A DNA stretch of 24,000 bases from an uncultured Hyphomicrobiales bacterium (GTDB taxonomy: Bacteria; Pseudomonadota; Alphaproteobacteria; Rhizobiales; Beijerinckiaceae): positions 84,471-108,470 of the forward strand of contig CAIUWR010000049.1 in assembly GCA_903902915.1 (NCBI GenBank), written 5' to 3'. The position numbers and the translations under genes are program-made. Each line of letters opens with the position of its first letter. Positions within the stretch are counted from its first letter, which is position 1. Under the pieces are notes generated by a model. The model was not told the DNA's origin, did not search any database, and saw only the letters and a program-made list of their open reading frames with translations. Shown here piece after piece: positions 1-12,546 of this stretch.

Positions 1-789
1 AACACGCTCGACGAACATCTCGACATGCTGATGGTCTGCCATCACCTCGATTCGTCGATCCCCGAGGATCTGGCTTTCGCCGAAAGCCGCATCCGCAAGG
101 AGACCATCGCCGCCGAAGACATCCTGCACGATCTGGGCGCGCTCTCCATGATGAGTTCGGACTCGCAGGCCATGGGCCGCGTGGGCGAGGTGATCATCCG
201 GACCTGGCAGACCGCCGACAAGATGAAACGCCAGCGCGGCCCCCTGCTAGAGGAGACCGGCGACAACGACAACGCCCGCGCCAAACGCTACATCGCCAAA
301 TATACGATCAACCCGGCCATCGCCCATGGCGTGTCGCGGCACATCGGCTCCATCGAGCCGGGCAAGCTGGCCGATCTCGTGCTGTGGACGCCCGCCTTCT
401 TCGGCGTGAAGCCCGATATCATCATCAAGGGCGGCGCCATCGCGGCCGCCGCCATGGGCGACCCCAACGCCTCGATCCCGACGCCCCAGCCGGTGCATTA
501 CCGGTCGATGTTCGGCGCCTATGGCGGCGCGGTGGCCTCGACCTGCCTCACCTTCGTCAGCGCGCTGGCGATGGACAGGGGGCTGGGGGCGAAGCTGCGC
601 GTCAACAAGCCCATGGTGGCCGTGGAGAACACGCGCGGCCAGATCAGCAAGAAAAGCATGATCCACAACGCCGCCACCCCGAAGATCGTGGTGGACCCCG
701 AGACCTATTCGGTGAGCGCCGACGGCGTGCTGCTGGTCTGCGAGCCCGCCGATGTGCTGCCCATGGCGCAAAGGTATTTCCTGTTCTAG
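1..789 (+). CDS. ureC: Urease alpha subunit, C-terminal part (5' end lies outside the window)
   Basis: Frame 1 is open from base 1 ([17 protein letters not shown]...). It contains typical UreC segments ([36 protein letters not shown]) and the canonical C-terminus [10 protein letters not shown] followed by TAG at 787-789. Confidence 0.95.
763..789. repeat. Left copy of a perfect 27-bp direct repeat (ATGGCGCAAAGGTATTTCCTGTTCTAG), equal to the last 8 codons plus stop of ureC
   Basis: The identical 27-mer was read at 2358-2384. This copy is in frame with ureC and completes it. It is about 44% G+C, lower than the flanking host DNA. Confidence 0.85.
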
Positions 790-1469
790 CCCGCGCCGCG
801 CGAGCGGTTGCAATAACTGTGGGTCAGTCTCGCATTTGACAGGTCGGTGCTTCCGCCCTGTGAATATGGGACGATGTGGTCCATCTCAGCATCATCTATG
901 TGCTCAATTTGCTGATGGCAGAGCCCGCACGTACGATCCTCGTCAAACCGCGCCTTTTTCTCTGAAAACGTATATAGCCGCCGCATCGCCACGTGTGGGC
1001 CAATTACATCATTTAACACGCTGTTCCATATCTCGAACCGGGTTTTAACCCGACTCTTGTCTGCCGTTCCTAGAGTGATTGCATCTGCGAACTCTCTACT
1101 CGTGGAACAAATATGAATAAACGCTTCGCGAATTGCGTCTTTCCGCTCTATGACGAGCCGCTTTTCAGCACGCGCAAACCAAAACATGATGACGTCGTAG
1201 ACCGCCTTGTTTATGGCTTTCTCCCAACTGCCTCCCACATGACCGGGCGAACCAGGCGAGTAACGACGGAAAGCCTTTTCGCCAAAAACTGTAAATGACA
1301 ATTCAATGGCTTTGTGAAAAACTTCCTTATATTTGTTTTCTCGCTCTGGTGAAATGGTGCGGTTTTCCTTCATATGATTATTTAAAAACGACCGCATCCC
1401 ATCATTATAGTTCAAATAGGTCGCCTCGTTGAATGCAAGAAATCGCAAAACTAATTCGACATCCTGCAT
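786..1469 (-). CDS. C-terminal fragment: helical middle region plus HNH endonuclease motif
   Basis: [45 protein letters not shown] is a classical HNH (His-Me finger) signature with a Cys pair. ELVLRFLAF-type middle region as in long DUF262 proteins. The stop codon (complement of 786-788) lies inside the left direct repeat and overlaps the ureC stop. Confidence 0.7.
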
Positions 1470-2357
1470 TCTAGCGACAGGGTTATTAACGCCAAGAATC
1501 GTCTGAAAGTTTTAGTCTTTAGCTAATTCATTCATCAATTGGTTATAGCTACCTCGAAAAATGCAGTTCCTTAATTCCTGATCGGACAAAGAGACGGAGC
1601 CCGTGTTAAGCCGCTCGAATATTTCAAATTTTACAACCGGATGAGAGTCTTTTGATATTTTTATCGTCGGAATTGTGAATTTGTTGAACGCGTTTTTTGT
1701 CGCCTCATCAAGTTCTGCATGACGCTTCCCATCCAGATGGGACAATATTTTTAGATTTTTCAATCGAAATGGTCGGTGTTTTACGTGTTCACCACGACTT
1801 TCCCGCTCCTCGTCTTTTTTTGAAAGCGGGAAAAATCCGTCTATAAACGCAAAGCACGTTGTTAATCGTTGCTGACCATCGATAACAACTTCCTTCCCTC
1901 CGTCTTCTTCAGCTGTATAAACAAGCGGAAGCGGCACATTTAGCAGAATAGACTCTACAAGCGTGCTGGCTTTTTTAGTATCCCAAACGTAGCCCCTCTG
2001 GAAGGCTGGTCTCGGGTCTATGTCCTTGTCTTCTTTGTACGCTCTGTAGAGGTCGATGATTCGCCGGTTAGAATTTGAGAAATTGATTGGTGTGAAATTA
2101 TCAAGCGCGAGCGGGCTCTGATCATCGTCCTCGGCCTCAATCGTAACCTCCGCCTCCTGAACATGAGCTTCAGGGGCTTCGTACTCTGCTTCTTGGTTTG
2201 CGGACATAATGAGAGCCCCTAACTTTACATAAGCTTAACAAATATGAACACCAATATTAAATCAAGCAGAAGTTGATCAAGCCTGCGGGCCTCGGTGGAA
2301 ACAAAGTCTGCCACTCCACGGTTCCCGGGGTGATGCAGCGGCTCTTGCGTTTCCCCA
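790..2357. mobile_element. Low-GC inserted cassette / genomic islet between the 27-bp direct repeats; single nuclease cargo gene, no integrase or transposase
   Basis: Sharp composition drop (hand-counted lines 30-43% G+C versus about 68% in the flanks). It is bounded by the perfect direct repeats and interrupts the ureC to ureE region. The only convincing coding capacity is the minus-strand DUF262/HNH reading frame. Confidence 0.6.
1512..2207 (-). CDS. DUF262 domain protein fragment (N-terminal ParB-like / GmrSD-N-like part)
   Basis: Contains the family hallmarks FQRGYVWDTKKASTLVESIL and VIDGQQRLTT (DGQQR motif). Starts at ATG 2205-2207 with AGGGG about 9 nt upstream on the minus strand. Ends at the in-frame TAA. 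Confidence 0.75.
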   Translation of the reverse strand: MSANQEAEYEAPEAHVQEAEVTIEAEDDDQSPLALDNFTPINFSNSNRRIIDLYRAYKEDKDIDPRPAFQRGYVWDTKKASTLVESILLNVPLPLVYTAEEDGGKEVVIDGQQRLTTCFAFIDGFFPLSKKDEERESRGEHVKHRPFRLKNLKILSHLDGKRHAELDEATKNAFNKFTIPTIKISKDSHPVVKFEIFERLNTGSVSLSDQELRNCIFRGSYNQLMNELAKD

Positions 2358-2384
2358 ATGGCGCAAAGGTATTTCCTGTTCTAG
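2358..2384. repeat. Right copy of the perfect 27-bp direct repeat (orphan duplicate of the ureC 3' end)
   Basis: Identical to 763-789. The sequence upstream of it is not ureC-like: the ureC frame hits TGA 9 codons upstream. It lies 26 nt upstream of the ABM gene start. Confidence 0.85.
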
Positions 2385-2410
2385 AAGAGGCTTCCGACCC
2401 CGGAGGCTTC

Positions 2411-2713
2411 ATGATCGTCGTCATCGCCCGCGCCAAGATCCGTCCCGAAAAACGGGATGACTTTCTTGCGGCGGCGGCGGCCTGCGTGGAGACGTCCCGC
2501 GCGGAGAGCGGCAATATCGCTTATGACGTCTATGAAAGCGCCACGGAGACGAACGCCTTCGTCGTTCTGGAGCGCTGGAAGAGCCATGAGGACAATCGCG
2601 CCCATCTCCAGAACGCCCATACGCAGGACTTCCTGCGCGCCATGGCGCAAAGCGTGGCCGAAATGCCCCGGATAGAGGCGATCACCCCCGCCAAGATCGA
2701 CATGCTCGCTTGA
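2411..2713 (+). CDS. Antibiotic-biosynthesis-monooxygenase (ABM / Dabb-fold) family protein, 100 aa
   Basis: [22 protein letters not shown]...[26 protein letters not shown] is a typical ABM-domain pattern. GGAGG at 2402-2406 precedes ATG 2411. The longer track ORF from 2273 runs through the repeat and island edge and is not credible. Confidence 0.8.
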
Positions 2714-2724
2714 GAGAGACCCCC

Positions 2725-3291
2725 ATGATCCGCGCCAATTTCATCAGCGCCCGAGGCGCATGGCAGGCCAAGCCCGCCGACACCGTCGTGCTCGATTTCG
2801 AAGCGCGCCACCGCCGCCGCGTCGCCATGACCGGCGTGCGCGGCCTCGAATTCCTGCTCGATCTGCCCGAAGCCGTGGTGCTGCGCCATGGCGACGCCTT
2901 GGTGCTGGAGGACGGGCGCCTCGTGGAAGTGGTCGCCGCGCCCGAGCCGCTGGCCGAGATCCGCATCGGCGAGCCGCGCGATCTCGCGCGCATGGCCTGG
3001 CATCTGGGCAACCGTCATCTGCCGGTGCAGATTCTCGCCAACCGAATCCGCATCCGCCGCGACCCGGTGATCGAGGACATGGCCCGCAAGCTGGGCGGCA
3101 AGATCGCCCTCATCGAAGGCCCCTTCGAGCCCGAGGGCGGCGCCTATGCGCCCGAACCCGAGCCTGCGCCGGAACCCGCACATGTGCATGGCCCGGGCTG
3201 TGGGCATGATCACCACGGGCATGATCACCACGCCCATGACGACCACGGCCACGACCACGCTGGCCATGGACACAAGCATTCTCATGACTGA
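2725..3291 (+). CDS. ureE: Urease accessory protein UreE (nickel metallochaperone) with His-rich tail
   Basis: [10 protein letters not shown] motif. C-terminal [39 protein letters not shown] at 2725 chosen; TTG at 2710 is an alternative. Sits in the ure cluster. Confidence 0.9.
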
Positions 3292-4009
3292 TCTGGCCCT
3301 CGCGCAGCGGCCTTCGCTTGTGGATACGCAAACCAGCGCAGGTTCCGCCCTGCCGCTGCACATCTGGCTATCGCCCGCTTTTCCGGTGGGCGCCTTCGCC
3401 TATAGCCATGGGCTGGAAGCCGCCGTCGATCATGGCGACATCACGAACGCCGCCACGCTGCAAGCCTGGCTCGACGATCTCGTGCGCTTCGGCTCGTTGC
3501 GCAGCGACGCCCTGCTGGTCGCCTGCGCCTGGCGCGCGGCTGTCGCAGGCGACATGGCTGGGGTCATCGAGATCAATGATCTGGCCCTTGCCCTGGCCCC
3601 TTCCAAAGAACGGCATCTGGAGACGGCGGCGCAGGGAAACGCCTTCATCGCCGCCGCGCAGGCCTCCTGGCCTTGCGATCTGCTTGCCGAACTGGCGGGG
3701 GCGGCGGACACCATCGCCTATCCCGTCGCGGTGGCCGTGGCGGCGGCGGCCCATGCTGTGCCGCTGGCCGCCCTTCTCGACGCATATCTGGTCGCCTTCG
3801 CGGGCAATCTCGTCTCCGCCGCCGTGCGCCTTGGCCCGGTGGGGCAGACCGACGGGCAGAAGATCATCGCGCGGCTTGTGCCCGCCCTGCGCGAGGCCGC
3901 ACAGTTCGCGGCAACTGGAACGCTGGACGATCTGGGCTCCGCAGCCCTGCGCTCCGACATCGCCGCCATGCGGCATGAAACGCAATATTCAAGGCTGTTC
4001 CGCTCATGA
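3284..4009 (+). CDS. ureF: Urease accessory protein UreF
   Basis: [23 protein letters not shown]... is typical of UreF. ATG 3284 overlaps the ureE stop (3289-3291) by 8 nt, indicating translational coupling. Confidence 0.9.
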
Positions 4010-4440
4010 CCCTCGGCTTGTGCCTCTTCGTCTTCGCCGTGCTGATGACGGTGGCGGGCCTTTACTTGTCCTGGGCGCGGGGCGGGCATTGGCCCGTTTC
4101 CAGCGAGATGGCGCTGGCTGCGGCAGTGGTCGGCGACCCGAAACTGCAACGCATGCCCTCGCCCCAACGCCTGCGGCTGATCGCCCTCGCCCACGCGCTG
4201 GGCGCGCTCAGCGTGCTGGCTCTGGGCTTCGACCTGCCCGGCCCGCTGCAACTGATCGCGACCTATTTGGGCGCGGGCTTTTGCGCTGTCTTCGGCCTGC
4301 GCGGCGTGCTCGGCTTCCTGCCGTTCTGGCGCAAGCATTTCACGGCGGAACCGTTCAACACCATTGACCGGATCATCTATTCGCCCTGCTATGTGCTGAT
4401 CGCCGAGGTCTATTTCTCGCTCATCTCCGACAGGTTCTGA
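4006..4440 (+). CDS. Small integral membrane protein, DUF3995-like, embedded between ureF and ureG
   Basis: About four hydrophobic segments. N-terminal LSWARGGHW resembles the DUF3995 WAxGG-W pattern (from memory, not searched). ATGA overlap with the ureF stop, and 3 nt before the ureG start. Confidence 0.65.
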   Translation: MTLGLCLFVFAVLMTVAGLYLSWARGGHWPVSSEMALAAAVVGDPKLQRMPSPQRLRLIALAHALGALSVLALGFDLPGPLQLIATYLGAGFCAVFGLRGVLGFLPFWRKHFTAEPFNTIDRIIYSPCYVLIAEVYFSLISDRF

Positions 4441-4443
4441 ACC

Positions 4444-5066
<623 letters not shown>

Positions 5067-5070
<4 letters not shown>

Positions 5071-5573
5071 CCCGGCAACAGGTCTTGCAGCCGCAGCAGG
5101 GCGATGCGGCTGATCTCGTCCAGCGCAGCGGCGAATTCCTGATCGCGGTCGTGAGCGATGCGACGCGCGAAGGCGCCCATGATCTCATCCTTGCTGCGGC
5201 CCTTCACCGCCATGATGAAGGGGAAACCAAAACGCGCCTTGTAGGCGTCGTTCAGTTCCGTGAAGCGCGCCCGTTCCTCGTCGGTGAGCTGGTCGAGGCC
5301 GGCGGACGCTTGCTCTTTCGTCGATTCCGCCGTCAGGCGTCCGGCGCGGGCGAGGCGCCCCGCGAGATCGGGATGGGCCATGATGAGCGCGAGCTTCTGC
5401 ACATCATCGCCCGCCATCATGGCTCGGGCCATCAGGGCATGCAGACCGCGCGCCGTCTCACAGCTGGAATCGAGCCCGGCGTCAAAGGCGGATTCCGCGA
5501 CCCAGGGCGAATGTTCGAAAACCCCGCCAAAGCGGTCCACGAAGGCGGCGCGTGAAAGGTCGCGAAGGTTCAT
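5067..5573 (-). CDS. uraD: 2-oxo-4-hydroxy-4-carboxy-5-ureidoimidazoline (OHCU) decarboxylase
   Basis: [42 protein letters not shown] are OHCU decarboxylase hallmarks. Start taken at MNLRDL (ATG 5571-5573) rather than the longer track ORF. Its stop overlaps the ureG stop in a TTAA. Confidence 0.9.
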
Positions 5574-5620
5574 CGGAAAACCTGTTTGATAGGGGCGGCG
5601 ACAAGGTTGTAAGCTTCGGT

Positions 5621-5636
5621 CATGCTGTTTAGCATG
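5621..5636. promoter_or_regulatory. Perfect palindrome CATGCT-GTTT-AGCATG in the uraD/hiuH divergent intergenic region; candidate operator
   Basis: Read directly from the sequence. Located about midway in the 98-bp gap between the divergent starts at 5573 and 5672. Confidence 0.3.
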
Positions 5637-5671
5637 CGACTCGGTTTTCACTATCTTATCAATGGTGGCGC

Positions 5672-6073
5672 GTGAGCGAAACAAAGACGCTTTCCCCGGT
5701 CGGCGCCCCGGCGCAATCTGGCCGCCTGACCACGCATGTGCTCGACACGGCCTGCGGCAAGCCCGCGCAAGGGGTGGCCATCAGCCTCTTCGCCGTTGAG
5801 GCCTCCGGCGCCCGGCGCTTGCTCAAAAGCGCGCGGACCAATGGAGACGGGCGCTGCGACGCACCTCTTCTGAGCGGCGCGGAGATGGTTGTGGGCGCCT
5901 ATGAACTCGTCTTCGAGGTCGCGGCCTATTTCCGCGCGGCGGGAGTCGCCCTGAGCGATCCGCCATTTCTGGACGTTGTTCCGATTCAATTCGGGATAGC
6001 CGAAGGCGGCGCGCATTATCATGTGCCGCTGCTCATCTCCCCCTATGGGTATTCGACCTATCGGGGAAGTTAA
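5672..6073 (+). CDS. hiuH: 5-hydroxyisourate hydrolase (transthyretin-like)
   Basis: [17 protein letters not shown], the [20 protein letters not shown]-terminus with the YRGS signature. GTG start at 5672; the exact start is uncertain. Confidence 0.9.
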
Positions 6074-6098
6074 TAAAGAACACTCAAGGGGAACAAAC

Positions 6099-7532
6099 AT
6101 GTCGGACGAGACGCACCCAGTAGATGAAATGCTGCCGCCTGCTCGCCTTGGCGCGCTGGGCTTGCAGCATGTTTTGGTGATGTATGCGGGCGCCATCGCC
6201 GTGCCGCTGATCATTTCCGGCGCGCTTGGGCTCAATCCCGAGCAGCGCGCGGTGCTGATCAACGCGGATCTTCTGGCCTGCGGCCTCGCCACACTGGTGC
6301 AGGCGCTGGGCTTCTGGGGCGTGGGCATCCGCCTCCCCGTCATGATGGGCGTCACCTTCGCCTCCGTCTCGCCCATGATGGGCATGATCGCAGCCGCCAA
6401 GAGCGGCGGCAACTTTCAGGCGATTCCCACCCTGCTGACCATCTATGGCTCGGTCATCGCGGCCGGCCTCTTCGCCTTCCTCGTGGCCCCACTGGTGGGC
6501 CGGGTGCTGCGCTTCTTCCCGCCGGTGGTCACGGGCACGATCATCACGGTGATCGGCCTGTCGCTGATGCGCATTGGCGTCGGCTGGGCGGAAGGCCCGC
6601 TGACGGTGGTGCAGATGGTGGATGGGGCGGTGAAGGTCATTCCCAATCCCAACCGCGACGCGCTCGACGGCCTCGCCATGGCGCTGTTCGTGCTGCTGGT
6701 GATCCTTGGAATCACCAAATACGCCAAGGGCTTCATCTCCAATGTGGCGGTTCTGGTGGGCATCATCGCGGGCGCGGTCGTGGCCAGCCTGGTGGGCGCC
6801 GAGTCGCCCAATGTGGCCATGAGCTTCGCCGATGTGGCCAAGGCCCCCTGGTTCGGCGTGGTCATGCCCCTGCAATTCGGCATGCCCACCTTCGAGGTGA
6901 CGCCCATCATCATCATGTGCATCGTGATGCTGGTGGTGATGATCGAATCGACCGGCATGTTCCTGGCGCTGGGAGAGATGACCGGCCGCAAGGTGGGTCC
7001 GGAGGATCTGACCCGGGGCCTGCGGGCTGACGGCGTCGGCACCATCATCGGCGGCGTGTTCAACACCTTCCCCTACACCTCCTTCTCCCAGAACGTGGGC
7101 CTCGTCGGCGTCACCGGCGTGCGTTCGCGCTATGTGGCGGCGGCGGGCGGCGTGATCCTGATCGTTCTGGGCTTCGTGCCCAAGCTCGCCGCCCTTGTGG
7201 GCGCGGTGCCCGTGCAGGTGCTGGGCGGCGCGGGTCTGGTGATGTTCGGCATGGTCACGGCCACCGGCATCCGCATTCTGGGCGGGGTGGACTTCAAGAC
7301 GAAGCGCCACAACCTGTTCATCGTGGCGATTGCGGTGGGCTTCGGCCTCATCCCGCTCATCGCGCCGAACTTCTTCAAGAACTTCCCCAGCGAACTGAAG
7401 CTGTTGCTGGAGTCAGGCATCATCCTTGCCTCCATCGTGGCCGTCGTGCTCAACGCTTTCTTCAACGGTCTGGGCTCCCGGACCGAGGCTGAAGCGCAGA
7501 TCGCGCAAGCGTCCGCGCAGGCCGACATCTGA
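6099..7532 (+). CDS. NCS2-family nucleobase:cation symporter (xanthine/uric acid permease type)
   Basis: GLQHVLVMYAGAIAVPLII, ESTGMFLALGEMTG, FPYTSFSQNVGLVGVTGVRSRYV are NCS2 signatures, with many TM segments. ATG 6099 is preceded by AAGGGGA. Substrate is inferred from the urate context. Confidence 0.9.
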   Translation: MSDETHPVDEMLPPARLGALGLQHVLVMYAGAIAVPLIISGALGLNPEQRAVLINADLLACGLATLVQALGFWGVGIRLPVMMGVTFASVSPMMGMIAAAKSGGNFQAIPTLLTIYGSVIAAGLFAFLVAPLVGRVLRFFPPVVTGTIITVIGLSLMRIGVGWAEGPLTVVQMVDGAVKVIPNPNRDALDGLAMALFVLLVILGITKYAKGFISNVAVLVGIIAGAVVASLVGAESPNVAMSFADVAKAPWFGVVMPLQFGMPTFEVTPIIIMCIVMLVVMIESTGMFLALGEMTGRKVGPEDLTRGLRADGVGTIIGGVFNTFPYTSFSQNVGLVGVTGVRSRYVAAAGGVILIVLGFVPKLAALVGAVPVQVLGGAGLVMFGMVTATGIRILGGVDFKTKRHNLFIVAIAVGFGLIPLIAPNFFKNFPSELKLLLESGIILASIVAVVLNAFFNGLGSRTEAEAQIAQASAQADI

Positions 7533-9578: not shown

Positions 9579-10213
9579 GCCCCCATCGTCGTCTCGCCGA
9601 GCGCGTCATCATCGCCACCCATAATGGCGGCAAGCTGCGCGAAATGCGCGAGCTGATGGCGCCCTATGGGATCGACTGCGTATCGGCCGGGGAGCTTGGC
9701 CTCCCCGAGCCCGAGGAGACCGGCGTCACCTTCATGGAGAACGCCCTGATCAAGGCGCGTGCGGCGGCCATGGCCGCCAACCTTCCCGCGCTGGCCGATG
9801 ACTCAGGGCTTTGCGTGGCCGCGCTCGACGGCGCGCCGGGCATCTATTCGGCCCGCTGGGCTGGCGAGGCCAAGGACTTCGCCGCCGCCATGGCGCTGGT
9901 GGAGGAGAAGGTGAAAGCGCTGGGCTGCGTCGCCCCCGAGCAGCGCGCCAGCTGGTTCATCTCGGCGCTCGCCATCGTCTGGCCCGATGGCCACGCGGAA
10001 GAATTCGAAGGCCGCATCGACGGCGTGCTGGTCGATCCGCCGCGCGGGACGGCGGGCTTTGGCTATGATCCCTGTTTCCTGCCCGAAGGCCACAGCCGCA
10101 CCTTCGGCGAAATGACCTCGGAAGAAAAACACGGCCTGCCTGCGGATGGCTCGCGCGCCCTGTCGCATCGGGCGCGCGCCTTCCAGATGCTGGCGAAGGC
10201 CTGTCTGGCCTAG
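9575..10213 (+). CDS. rdgB: dITP/XTP pyrophosphatase (RdgB/HAM1 family)
   Basis: [42 protein letters not shown] motifs. ATGA overlap with the rph stop; conserved rph-rdgB synteny. Confidence 0.93.
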
Positions 10214-11284: not shown

Positions 11285-11403
11285 GGGAATCTCCTTGCGA
11301 CGCGCCTGCGTCGTCTGGCGGGCACCTTATCCTTCCGAAGTAGAGTTGCAATCGCCTCCCGCTCATGAAAACCTCGAGCCATTGCAGTCGGAGCCTTCCG
11401 CCC

Positions 11404-12546
11404 ATGACCTTTGCCCTGACCGGCGAGCAGATCGCCATTCGCGACATGGCGCGCGATTTCGCAAGAGCCCGCATCGAGCCCCATGCGCTGGACTGGGACG
11501 AGCAGAAGATTTTCCCCGTGGACACGCTGCGCGAAGCGGCGGCGCTGGGGATGGCGGGCATCTATGTGCGCGAGGATGTGGGCGGCTCGGGCCTGACGCG
11601 GCTCGACGCGACGCTGATCTTCGAGGCGCTGGCCACCGGCTGCCCCTGCGTCTCCGCCTATCTGTCGATCCACAACATGTGCGCCTGGATGATCGACGCC
11701 TACGGATCGGGCGAACAGCGCCAGCGCTGGCTGCCCATGCTCATGCGCATGGACCGGCTGGCGAGCTATTGCCTCACCGAGCCTGGCAGCGGTTCCGACG
11801 CCGCCGCGCTCGCCACGAAGGCCGAGCGCGAGGGCGACCATTATGTGCTCACCGGCCAGAAGCAGTTCATCTCCGGCGCCGGCAATCCCCACGATTTCTA
11901 CATCGTGATGGCGCGCACCGGCGAGGCTGGGCCGCGCGGCGTTTCCTGCTTCGTGGTGGAGGGCGGAAGCAAAGGCGTCTTTTTTGGCAAGGACGAGCGC
12001 AAGATGGGTTGGCACGCCCAGCCCACCCGCGCCGTGATCTTCGAAGGCGCGCGGGTCCCGGCCGCCAACCGGATCGGCGCGGAAGGCGAGGGCTTCCGCA
12101 TCGCCATGTCGGGGCTTGATGGCGGGCGGCTCAACATCGGCGCCTGTTCGCTGGGCGGGGGCGAGGCGGCGCTGGAAAAGGCGCTCAACTACATGGGCGA
12201 GCGCAAGGCCTTCGGCCGCAGGCTCGACCAGTTTCAGGCCCTGCAATTCCGCCTCGCCGACATGGCGACCGAACTGGAAGCCGCGCGCAGCCTCATCTGG
12301 CGCGCGGCGGCAGCATTGGACGCCAAAACGCAGGACGCCACGCAGCTCTGCGCCATGGCCAAAAGGGTCGCCACCGACGCGGGCTTCAAGGCGGCCAACG
12401 ACGCGCTGCAATTGCTCGGCGGCTATGGCTATCTGTCGGACTATGGGATCGAGAAAATCGTGCGCGACCTGCGCGTGCATCAGATTCTGGAAGGCACCAA
12501 CGAAATCATGCGCCTGATCGTGGCGCGCGAACTCGTGGGGCGTTGA
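11404..12546 (+). CDS. Acyl-CoA dehydrogenase, isobutyryl-CoA dehydrogenase-like (valine catabolism by context)
   Basis: YCLTEPGSGSDAA, KQFISGAG, GEGFRIAMSGLDGGRLNI, QILEGTNEIMR are ACAD hallmarks. Substrate is inferred only from the adjacent mmsB. Start at MTFALTGEQ (ATG 11404). Confidence 0.9.
   Translation: MTFALTGEQIAIRDMARDFARARIEPHALDWDEQKIFPVDTLREAAALGMAGIYVREDVGGSGLTRLDATLIFEALATGCPCVSAYLSIHNMCAWMIDAYGSGEQRQRWLPMLMRMDRLASYCLTEPGSGSDAAALATKAEREGDHYVLTGQKQFISGAGNPHDFYIVMARTGEAGPRGVSCFVVEGGSKGVFFGKDERKMGWHAQPTRAVIFEGARVPAANRIGAEGEGFRIAMSGLDGGRLNIGACSLGGGEAALEKALNYMGERKAFGRRLDQFQALQFRLADMATELEAARSLIWRAAAALDAKTQDATQLCAMAKRVATDAGFKAANDALQLLGGYGYLSDYGIEKIVRDLRVHQILEGTNEIMRLIVARELVGR

Follow-up and report, generated by a model that had tools for sequence, protein, structure and literature searches.

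The window analysed here, a stretch of 24,000 nucleotides from an uncultured Hyphomicrobiales bacterium (NCBI GenBank assembly GCA_903902915.1, contig CAIUWR010000049.1, positions 84,471 to 108,470), carries behind the urease gene ureC a minus-strand gene at 786-2207 that is very probably a newly inactivated allele of a stand-alone, single-polypeptide nuclease, with a role that by analogy would be a defence resembling type IV restriction. We confirmed the original prediction that two minus-strand open reading frames (ORFs), 1512-2207 (231 amino acids) and 786-1469 (227 amino acids), lie in one common frame of 474 codons including the final stop. The two are separated only by a TAA at 1512-1514, the sole internal stop of the frame, and by 14 sense codons that lead to the ATG at 1469. 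The DUF262 motifs FQRGYVW and DGQQR previously read in the N-terminal part and the HNH motif CGLC...N...HSYCN at the C-terminal end were all found in the window translation. A Pfam search of the joined translation, which had been proposed as a check, detected both PF03235 GmrSD_N/DUF262 (E 3.9e-32, residues 65-217) and PF01844 HNH (E 1.8e-11, residues 427-471), and the two fragments scanned apart gave the same domain matches.

The interruption can be traced to one base. Codon 232, which is TAA in the window, is AAA (Lys) in L004 (82% identical), L008 (72% identical), and the intact allele P0124 on contig L092, indicating that the stop arose by a single A-to-T change and supplying the residue that it replaced. 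P0124 is exactly 473 amino acids long and belongs to the same 90% cluster as the window gene. On the structural model described below, the stop lies in the middle domain, after its first helix and before the second. A very recent inactivation had been one of four options offered for the TAA, and the relatives with AAA, low ratios of non-synonymous to synonymous substitution rates (dN/dS), and single-ORF homologues all favor it. We consider the TAA most likely to be a recent loss-of-function mutation, an ordinary step in the decay of an accessory gene.

Substitution patterns further support the youth of this lesion. The dN/dS between the window gene and L004 was 0.037 overall, 0.038 for the N-terminal part, and 0.035 for the C-terminal part. 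With L008 as the outgroup, a rough per-base parsimony count assigned 20 non-synonymous and 81 synonymous changes to the window branch and 29 and 58, respectively, to the branch of the intact L092 allele. Thus, relaxed selection on the window branch was looked for and not seen, and the lack of an excess of amino-acid changes suggests that the knock-out is very young. The window copy also retains 77 of the 79 columns that are conserved in ≥97% of 113 full-length relatives; one mismatching column is a conservative L-to-I change also present in the intact sister. The claim that a single nonsense codon interrupts the gene therefore stands with regard to internal stops, but its corollary of no other decay does not, due to a private, non-conservative R464S change within the H-R-Y-C-N segment of the HNH motif. 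Residue 464 is arginine in 99% of the 113 full-length relatives and in the sister alleles. R464S may have impaired the protein further, or may have weakened it before the stop arose.

Among about 5.8 billion proteins searched, >4,000 scored as relatives with E values below 1e-10, placing the feature far beyond chance. All of the best 119 homologues are single polypeptides, mostly of 440-490 amino acids (5 of the 119 lack a recorded HNH domain), and the gene is one uninterrupted ORF in 79 of 80 loci from species-representative genomes. By sequence, the fused form is the norm in the family. All-against-all clustering of neighboring genes revealed no conserved partner (NsnB/NsnC-like, HEPN, or methyltransferase) in more than 10 of 79 loci. 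The commonest neighbor was an HsdR-type restriction helicase (10 of 79 loci), and P0005 lies beside hsdR-hsdS-hsdM. In 77 of the 79 loci for which flanks were available, drawn from many bacterial and archaeal phyla, the guanine-plus-cytosine (GC) content of the gene was equal to or lower than that of its surroundings, frequently with a deficit of 10-23 points. We also observed that the family is persistently AT-rich irrespective of host (L006-L085, 80 loci). Full-length relatives were absent from 50,697 phage records and the fused form was found in few plasmids; distant plasmid homologues with DUF3696 neighbors lack the HNH domain. The searchable literature contained no experimental work on an NsnA-like core joined to a PF01844 HNH, and neither fusions of DUF262 with a canonical HNH nor HNH genes linked to urease were found in it.

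Domain and fold comparisons agreed on the architecture of the uninterrupted protein. In homologue alignments, VIDGQQR is invariant in the DUF262 domain, as are C427, C430, D443, H444, N458, H463, C466, and N467 of the HNH domain, which reads DHIVP inside CxxC...HxxC. The suggestion that a canonical HNH takes the place of the usual DUF1524 held up in Pfam, the structural model, and Foldseek alike: PF07510 (DUF1524) gave no match even at E values up to 1, and only the HNH models PF01844, PF14279, and PF13395 matched. Among PADLOC models, NsnA was best (E 1e-90, residues 20-402 over positions 21-383 of the 385-position profile), followed by PD-T4-2_A (E 1.5e-47, residues 44-392). The C-terminal 70 residues, which hold the HNH domain, lie outside both profiles. 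Matches to the HEC-05, HEC-06, and SspE models were confined to the DUF262 motifs (E 1e-7 to 1e-4), and the REase_II model matched both ends of the protein. NCBIfam gave no family-level match, with weak HNH similarity to Cas9d and IscB. By these profiles, the closest family appears to be of the NsnA/Menshen type rather than GmrSD proper.

A sequence search of the PDB gave marginal matches to the DUF262 motifs only, and a structure comparison was therefore needed. The AlphaFold model we used is that of homologue P0003 (62% identical), computed from a 40-sequence alignment, and not of the window protein itself. This model (mean pLDDT 80.5) consists of a disordered N-terminus, an alpha/beta DUF262 domain, a helical domain at residues 226-407, and a beta-beta-alpha HNH domain. 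Foldseek ranked BrxU (7p9k) first with a probability of 0.99, followed by SspE (6jiv), ParB N-domains, and the Gme HNH. The TM-scores for BrxU and SspE were low (0.17-0.21) because domain orientations differ. The C-terminus of the model matched the Gme HNH (4h9d) with a probability of 1.0 and a root mean square deviation of 1.8 A. Coordinates of the domains, the lesions, and the surrounding features are collected in Table 1.

Table 1. Positions in the window of the interrupted nuclease gene, its domains and lesions, and the islet that contains it
Feature	Position	Strand	Basis
ureC (urease alpha subunit), 3' part only, as the window begins within it	25..789	plus	PF00449 Urease_alpha on the full gene in L001
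Proximal repeat copy, last 8 codons plus stop of ureC, CCCATGGCGCAAAGGTATTTCCTGTTCTAG	760..789	plus	Repeat search
Complete interrupted DUF262-helical-HNH gene, 473 codons plus stop	786..2207	minus	
Inserted islet, 1,595 bp (equivalently 760-2354)	790..2384	unstranded	GC, repeat, empty sites
Canonical HNH (beta-beta-alpha-Me), residues 427-471, CxxC...DH...N...HxxCN; untranslated in this allele	795..929	minus	Pfam, Foldseek
Codon 464 AGT (Ser), private non-conservative R464S	816..818	minus	Alignment of 113 relatives
Helical middle domain, about residues 220-401, interrupted by the stop; corresponds to ParBDB in NsnA and to the linker domain in GmrSD/BrxU/SspE	1005..1550	minus	NsnA profile (residues 20-402), model, Foldseek, PMC12065111
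Premature stop TAA, codon 232; ancestral AAA (Lys)	1512..1514	minus	Relatives' alignments, model
ParB-like DUF262/GmrSD_N NTPase-sensor domain, residues 65-217, with FQRGYVW and DGQQR	1557..2015	minus	Pfam, model
5' non-coding part of the islet, AT-rich by the start codon and GC-richer by the distal repeat	2208..2354	minus	Comparison with L092
Distal non-coding copy of the ureC-tail repeat, CCAATGGCGCAAAGGTATTTCCTGTTCTAG	2355..2384	plus	Repeat search
Native ureC-ABM spacer (26 nt) and ABM-family monooxygenase gene (2411-2713)	2385..2713	plus	

The nuclease gene is the only ORF of significant size in a discrete islet (790-2384), a feature not described in the original prediction, which is inserted exactly at the ureC stop, and it runs antiparallel to the urease operon. 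Its stop codon overlaps the TAG stop of ureC (787-789) on the other strand through the palindrome CTAG (786-789). The GC content of the islet is 37-50% versus 61-74% in the host flanks, and the islet is bounded by a 30-nt direct repeat whose two copies are identical at 29 of 30 positions. In the close relatives L086 and L087, both metagenome contigs, the site is empty: a single copy of the 30-mer is present, the flanks are 85-92% identical to the window, and the ABM start codon lies about 26 nt after ureC. These empty sites define the insert as exactly 1,595 bp with a 30-bp target duplication, and their precision indicates that the islet is dispensable. We found no recombinase or integrase gene in or beside the islet, and scans for tRNA genes and Rfam families over 1-6500 and over the whole window found nothing. 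Downstream of the ABM gene follow ureE, ureF, a DUF3995 gene, and ureG.

The non-coding part of the islet upstream of the gene contains an AT-rich stretch with blocks conserved in L092, which is presumably the promoter. A scan for consensus promoters and terminators gave counts not above those of shuffled sequence, and no consensus promoter was called in 2208-2354. One promoter-like match overlaps the ATG at 1469, and a transcript from it would begin past that codon. The distal repeat together with about 15 adjacent bases (2340-2391 versus positions 1-52 of L092; TTGGGGAAACGCAAG on the minus strand) is 88% conserved, and the remaining 5' non-coding sequence is 62% conserved. The two repeat copies co-vary within a lineage, with CTG/TAG in both copies of the window and ATG/TAA in both copies of L092. 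These patterns could reflect gene conversion, young insertions, or a functional site.

Close relatives showed the gene at the same site in several damaged states. The L092 contig spans from one repeat copy to the other and encodes the intact gene. In L004, L005, and L093, whose gene is 99% identical to that of L092, foreign DNA rich in GC has taken the place of roughly the first 75 codons. The replacing DNA in L093 (1-139; also L004 1-52) begins a divergent ORF, MAAARSLAQFQKAFADEAS, where the contigs end; this ORF looks like the start of an insertion sequence transposase. In L008, a metagenome-assembled genome labelled Beijerinckia sp., the ureC-gene-ABM-ureE synteny is kept, two lesions disrupt the gene (a +1 frameshift and, within the HNH motif, a CAA codon turned into TAA), and the distal repeat is degenerate. 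Lesions at the ureC site thus comprise a nonsense mutation (window), a frameshift plus nonsense mutation (L008), and a 5' replacement (L004/L093), alongside one intact copy (L092). Since ureC of L093 is 95.7% identical to that of the empty-site contig L086, empty sites are nested among occupied ones.

More distant relatives extend the linkage to urease genes. P0002 (65% identity; L099 and L100) occupies the interval between ureC and ureE, immediately behind ureC and in antiparallel orientation. P0003 (62%; L097), likewise antiparallel, has overlapping stops and is followed by an ABM gene. P0008 (61%; L094 1977-3413) lies inside the urease operon and shares its orientation, separated from the preceding ureC by 31 nt and from the following ureE by 10 nt. 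The host of P0008 has a GC content of about 50%, the gene has a GC content at third codon positions (GC3) of 0.24, and it looks embedded in the operon rather than islet-like. Relatives at similar distances occur elsewhere: P0007 after thiC with parDE adjoining, P0026 upstream of rho, P0013 beside rpsA, P0006 after a fasciclin-like gene, P0005 in a type I restriction-modification (R-M) cluster, and the L010 and L011 copies after parE. In the latter two Rhodobacterales genomes (gene start at about 9938 and 6031, respectively), the family member abuts the 3' end of parE, encoding topoisomerase IV subunit B, as another solitary insertion at the end of a housekeeping gene.

We also considered flanking direct repeats as a family-wide signature and rejected them, as 64 loci gave a median score of 10 versus a shuffled-control maximum of 11. 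The strong exceptions are otherwise explained: repeats in L073 and L018 are conserved C-terminal motifs of neighboring R-M subunits, that in L052 is a tRNA 3' end, and a 136-nt direct repeat in L075 is probably a repeated intergenic element. In L073, the 51-nt repeat (9904-9954 and 11391-11441) that flanks the family member encodes ...KTGMMQQLLTGKIRLV*, a conserved HsdS C-terminal region, and the gene appears between hsdS-like segments of a type I R-M locus.

The intact protein would begin with a disordered acidic N-terminus and continue through a ParB-like DUF262 NTPase or sensor domain and a DNA-binding helical region to a canonical HNH at its C-terminus. In GmrSD, BrxU, SspE, and DndI, DUF262 is described as an NTPase through which detection of a DNA mark is relayed to a His-Me nuclease (PMC10952713, PMC11662687, PMC4619093, bioRxiv 10.1101/2024.01.29.577857). 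By analogy with these enzymes, the intact protein most likely works as a self-contained sensor and nuclease of the type IV restriction kind. Its DUF262 and helical module would detect some property of incoming DNA, probably a modified base or backbone, and binding and hydrolysis of nucleoside triphosphate (NTP) would then allow the HNH domain to cleave or nick it. With Lys-232 changed from AAA to TAA, translation would end after DUF262, and neither the helical domain nor the nuclease would be made; the private R464S change would add a second alteration at a near-invariant HNH residue. The islet would be dispensable, and the gene would have been lost repeatedly in its carriers, each time differently.

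Four points weigh against a newly inactivated defence nuclease. Very strong purifying selection and three different lesions at the site make an odd pairing, although the intact L092 allele exists. The gene is solitary inside a housekeeping operon and is not in a defence island. The assemblies bearing the TAA are 100% identical and represent one clone, and they may not be independent biological samples. Finally, no member with this exact architecture has been tested in the searchable literature, and both the defence role and the sensing of modified DNA are proposed by analogy.

Of the other explanations, the one that survives best, though unlikely, is that the islet is a site-specific mobile or selfish element, belonging to a clade that repeatedly enters the conserved 3' end of ureC, and that the stop reflects decay after fixation. 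Entry could proceed by homing-like HNH cleavage of empty sites, by a circle formed via the 30-bp repeats followed by Campbell-type re-integration, or by a recombinase acting in trans, as for cis-mobilizable elements. This explanation draws on at least three sub-lineages at 61-65% protein identity that lie directly after ureC with varying spacing and, in L094, in opposite orientation; on similarly distant relatives at other sites (thiC, rho, rpsA, type I R-M, and the fasciclin-like gene); and on precise empty sites nested among occupied lineages. The repeat copies are also near-identical and co-vary within a lineage though the islets differ by about 20%, and synonymous differences (pS) reach 0.64 in the islet versus 0.31 in the flanks (0.94 versus 0.65 in the L008 comparison). 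Furthermore, gene GC3 is only 0.24-0.50, versus 0.8-0.92 in three hosts and 0.46-0.63 in L008 and L094, and remains unameliorated despite near-saturated synonymous sites.

Other observations argue against such an element. Gene identities of 89, 80, 65, and about 61% follow the UreE and UreC distances of the hosts, as is expected from long vertical co-divergence. In a neighbor-joining tree, the window group and P0002 form a single 100%-supported clade that is wholly urease-linked; P0003 and P0008 fall into a weak group (59%) that includes the non-urease P0006. Deep nodes have 4-59% support, so the tree would be compatible with a single ancient insertion. No ureC-tail repeat is detectable in L094 or L097, and flanking repeats are not a family trait, the median being equal to the shuffled control. 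The lack of a recombinase in and beside the islet, and of full-length relatives in the phage records with few in plasmids, also speaks against a mobile element. Homing makes no target duplications, and DUF262 proteins are not known as homing enzymes. Simple vertical residence, in turn, fits poorly with the unameliorated GC3, the higher islet pS, the co-variation of the repeats, and the conservation of the distal repeat. We tentatively favor an ancient insertion followed by repeat-mediated losses, with some gene conversion or constraint, as the history of the islet, within which the window allele is a recently inactivated nuclease gene.

The proposal that the two ORFs are a natural two-polypeptide version, with a DUF262 protein and a helical-HNH protein produced by reinitiation at ATG 1469 in the manner of GmrS/GmrD, was not borne out and is very improbable. 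Both halves are under equally strong purifying selection, an in-frame ATG follows the stop after 14 codons, and GmrSD itself was first reported as two proteins (PMC4619093, PMC10952713). Low dN/dS in both halves is explained by the stop being very recent, however. It had been asked whether homologues occur as two separate genes with the same boundary, and none is divided there, the best 119 homologues and 79 of the 80 loci having a single polypeptide or ORF. ATG 1469 is the invariant Met-247 of the family, and the skipped segment holds the invariant F234 and R246 as well as a middle-domain helix. No Shine-Dalgarno sequence precedes this ATG, which is separated from the stop by a 42-nt gap, and the sister allele is intact at the same length.

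That the TAA is a sequencing or assembly artefact in an intact gene, a further option originally raised, is even harder to credit. As an artefact would allow, only one base separates the stop from the ancestral AAA, and the carriers share 100% sequence identity. However, at least three assembly pipelines, represented by a k141 contig in MEGAHIT style, a contig from Logan, and a scaffolded assembly from ENA, called the same base in at least four accessions, and the TAA is also present in an NCBI record with a 199.7-kb contig. The identical split pair is found in L001-L003 and a fourth record, all 100% identical to the window; three contigs from different pipelines maintain 100% identity to the window across 3.6-4.5 kb, and the 231- and 227-amino-acid products are listed on 8 contigs in NCBI, ENA, and Logan. 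Nor is the stop embedded in a homopolymer of the kind prone to short-read errors (GACTAAAAC versus GACAAAAAC). The last of the four options, stop-codon readthrough or recoding, was discarded because TAA terminates ureG and two neighboring genes and is a normal stop in this genome.

We give equally little credence to a reading in which the gene, instead of serving defence, has long been a functional member of the urease operon, for instance in regulation or DNA maintenance: its placement after ureC recurs in diverged hosts, the L094 copy is co-oriented and tightly packed, and purifying selection is strong, but close relatives without the gene keep an otherwise identical operon, the gene is damaged in several carriers, is mostly antiparallel to the operon, and is foreign in composition, the wider family occupies unrelated sites and R-M islands, and its domains are those of defence nucleases.

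The urease cluster itself contained several features of note. Two of its genes are non-canonical, one for an ABM-family (YgiN-like) monooxygenase (2411-2713) between ureC and ureE and one for a DUF3995 membrane protein (4006-4440) between ureF and ureG. The DUF3995 protein has 56-57% identity to its counterpart in close relatives, with a dN/dS of about 0.5, and is far more diverged than its neighbors. Within the spacer before the ABM gene (2385-2410), a hairpin, GGCTTCCG-ACCC-CGGAGGCT, covers the GGAGG ribosome-binding site of that gene; in L086 and L087, the hairpin is a perfect palindrome. Adjoining ureG at 5067-6073 are divergent genes for an OHCU decarboxylase (PF09349, minus strand) and a 5-hydroxyisourate hydrolase (PF00576, plus strand), and urate-degradation genes thus lie beside the urease cluster.

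If read as we propose, the lesion would be a clean example of the fast loss of defence-type nucleases. The family is more notable than the lesion, with >4,000 database relatives across Bacteria and Archaea that join a Menshen-type DUF262/ParBDB core to a canonical HNH. This sensor core is thus coupled to no fewer than four effector types, namely HNH, DUF1524, HEPN, and NsnB together with NsnC. The intact P0124 would be a compact subject for analyzing how DUF262 sensing is coupled to cleavage. The pseudogene itself is ordinary; modest novelty lies in an architecture not yet characterised and in an insertion point behind ureC that recurs with precise boundaries. The ureC placement with a target duplication and precise empty sites is a pattern that appears to be unreported, and if it reflects targeting rather than ancestry, it would be a new way for defence genes to move. 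It is doubtful that the clade amounts to a minimal mobile islet lacking a recombinase, one that specifically targets the ultra-conserved 3' end of ureC and has settled there repeatedly. If true, this would explain both orientations at 61-65% identity, the nested empty sites, the young-looking repeats, the divergence of the islet, and the unameliorated GC3. A family currently interpreted as type IV-like defence enzymes would also acquire the role of a selfish element, and movement by cleavage would amount to chromosomal, bacterial intronless homing.

Comparison with known systems places the islet and the gene apart from each of their nearest analogues. Integrase-type islands are likewise discrete foreign inserts at the 3' end of a gene, with a direct repeat that restores the end and precise empty sites, but they carry an integrase, whereas the islet in the window has no integrase, recombinase, or tRNA gene. 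The islet has the same likeness to their integrase-less derivatives, the cis-mobilizable elements. Freestanding phage homing endonuclease genes resemble it in having a nuclease gene as sole cargo between conserved genes, in presence and absence among relatives, and in precise empty sites, and intronless homing is an established concept (PMC2988022). However, a target duplication, which the islet has, is not produced by homing, and DUF262, which its gene has, is missing from the known homing HNH enzymes.

At the protein level, the window gene shares the two-domain core of Menshen NsnA, a ParB-DUF262 domain followed by the helical 'ParBDB' DNA-binding domain, to which a sensor role has been given (PMC12065111); the likeness of the core also rests on the model. 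NsnA has no nuclease and acts with the partners NsnB, an ABC ATPase with DUF3696, and NsnC, an inPIN plus effector, whereas the window gene has an HNH fused at its C-terminus. No NsnB/NsnC-like gene is adjacent in the window, where the neighbors are ureC and ABM/ureE, and none is conserved in the 79 related loci. PD-T4-2 has the same DUF262 and helical core in a two-gene system with a HEPN partner (PMC10952713); the islet contains no HEPN gene, and the effector of the window gene is the fused HNH. GmrSD, BrxU/HEC-05, HEC-06, SspE, and DndI follow the same plan as the window gene, with an N-terminal DUF262 bearing DGQQR, a helical middle, and a C-terminal His-Me nuclease in one polypeptide. The nuclease of GmrSD is a DUF1524 domain (PF07510) with (D/E)HxxP, whereas that of the window gene is a PF01844 HNH with a CxxC...HxxC zinc-type motif, and the window protein has 473 amino acids compared to 560-820 in GmrSD-family enzymes. 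The window gene is GmrSD/BrxU-like in plan and is not a member by the DUF1524 criterion. By analogy, the two nonetheless likely share a common logic, in which NTP-dependent sensing of a DNA mark would license cleavage or nicking (PMC10952713, PMC11662687, bioRxiv 10.1101/2024.01.29.577857).

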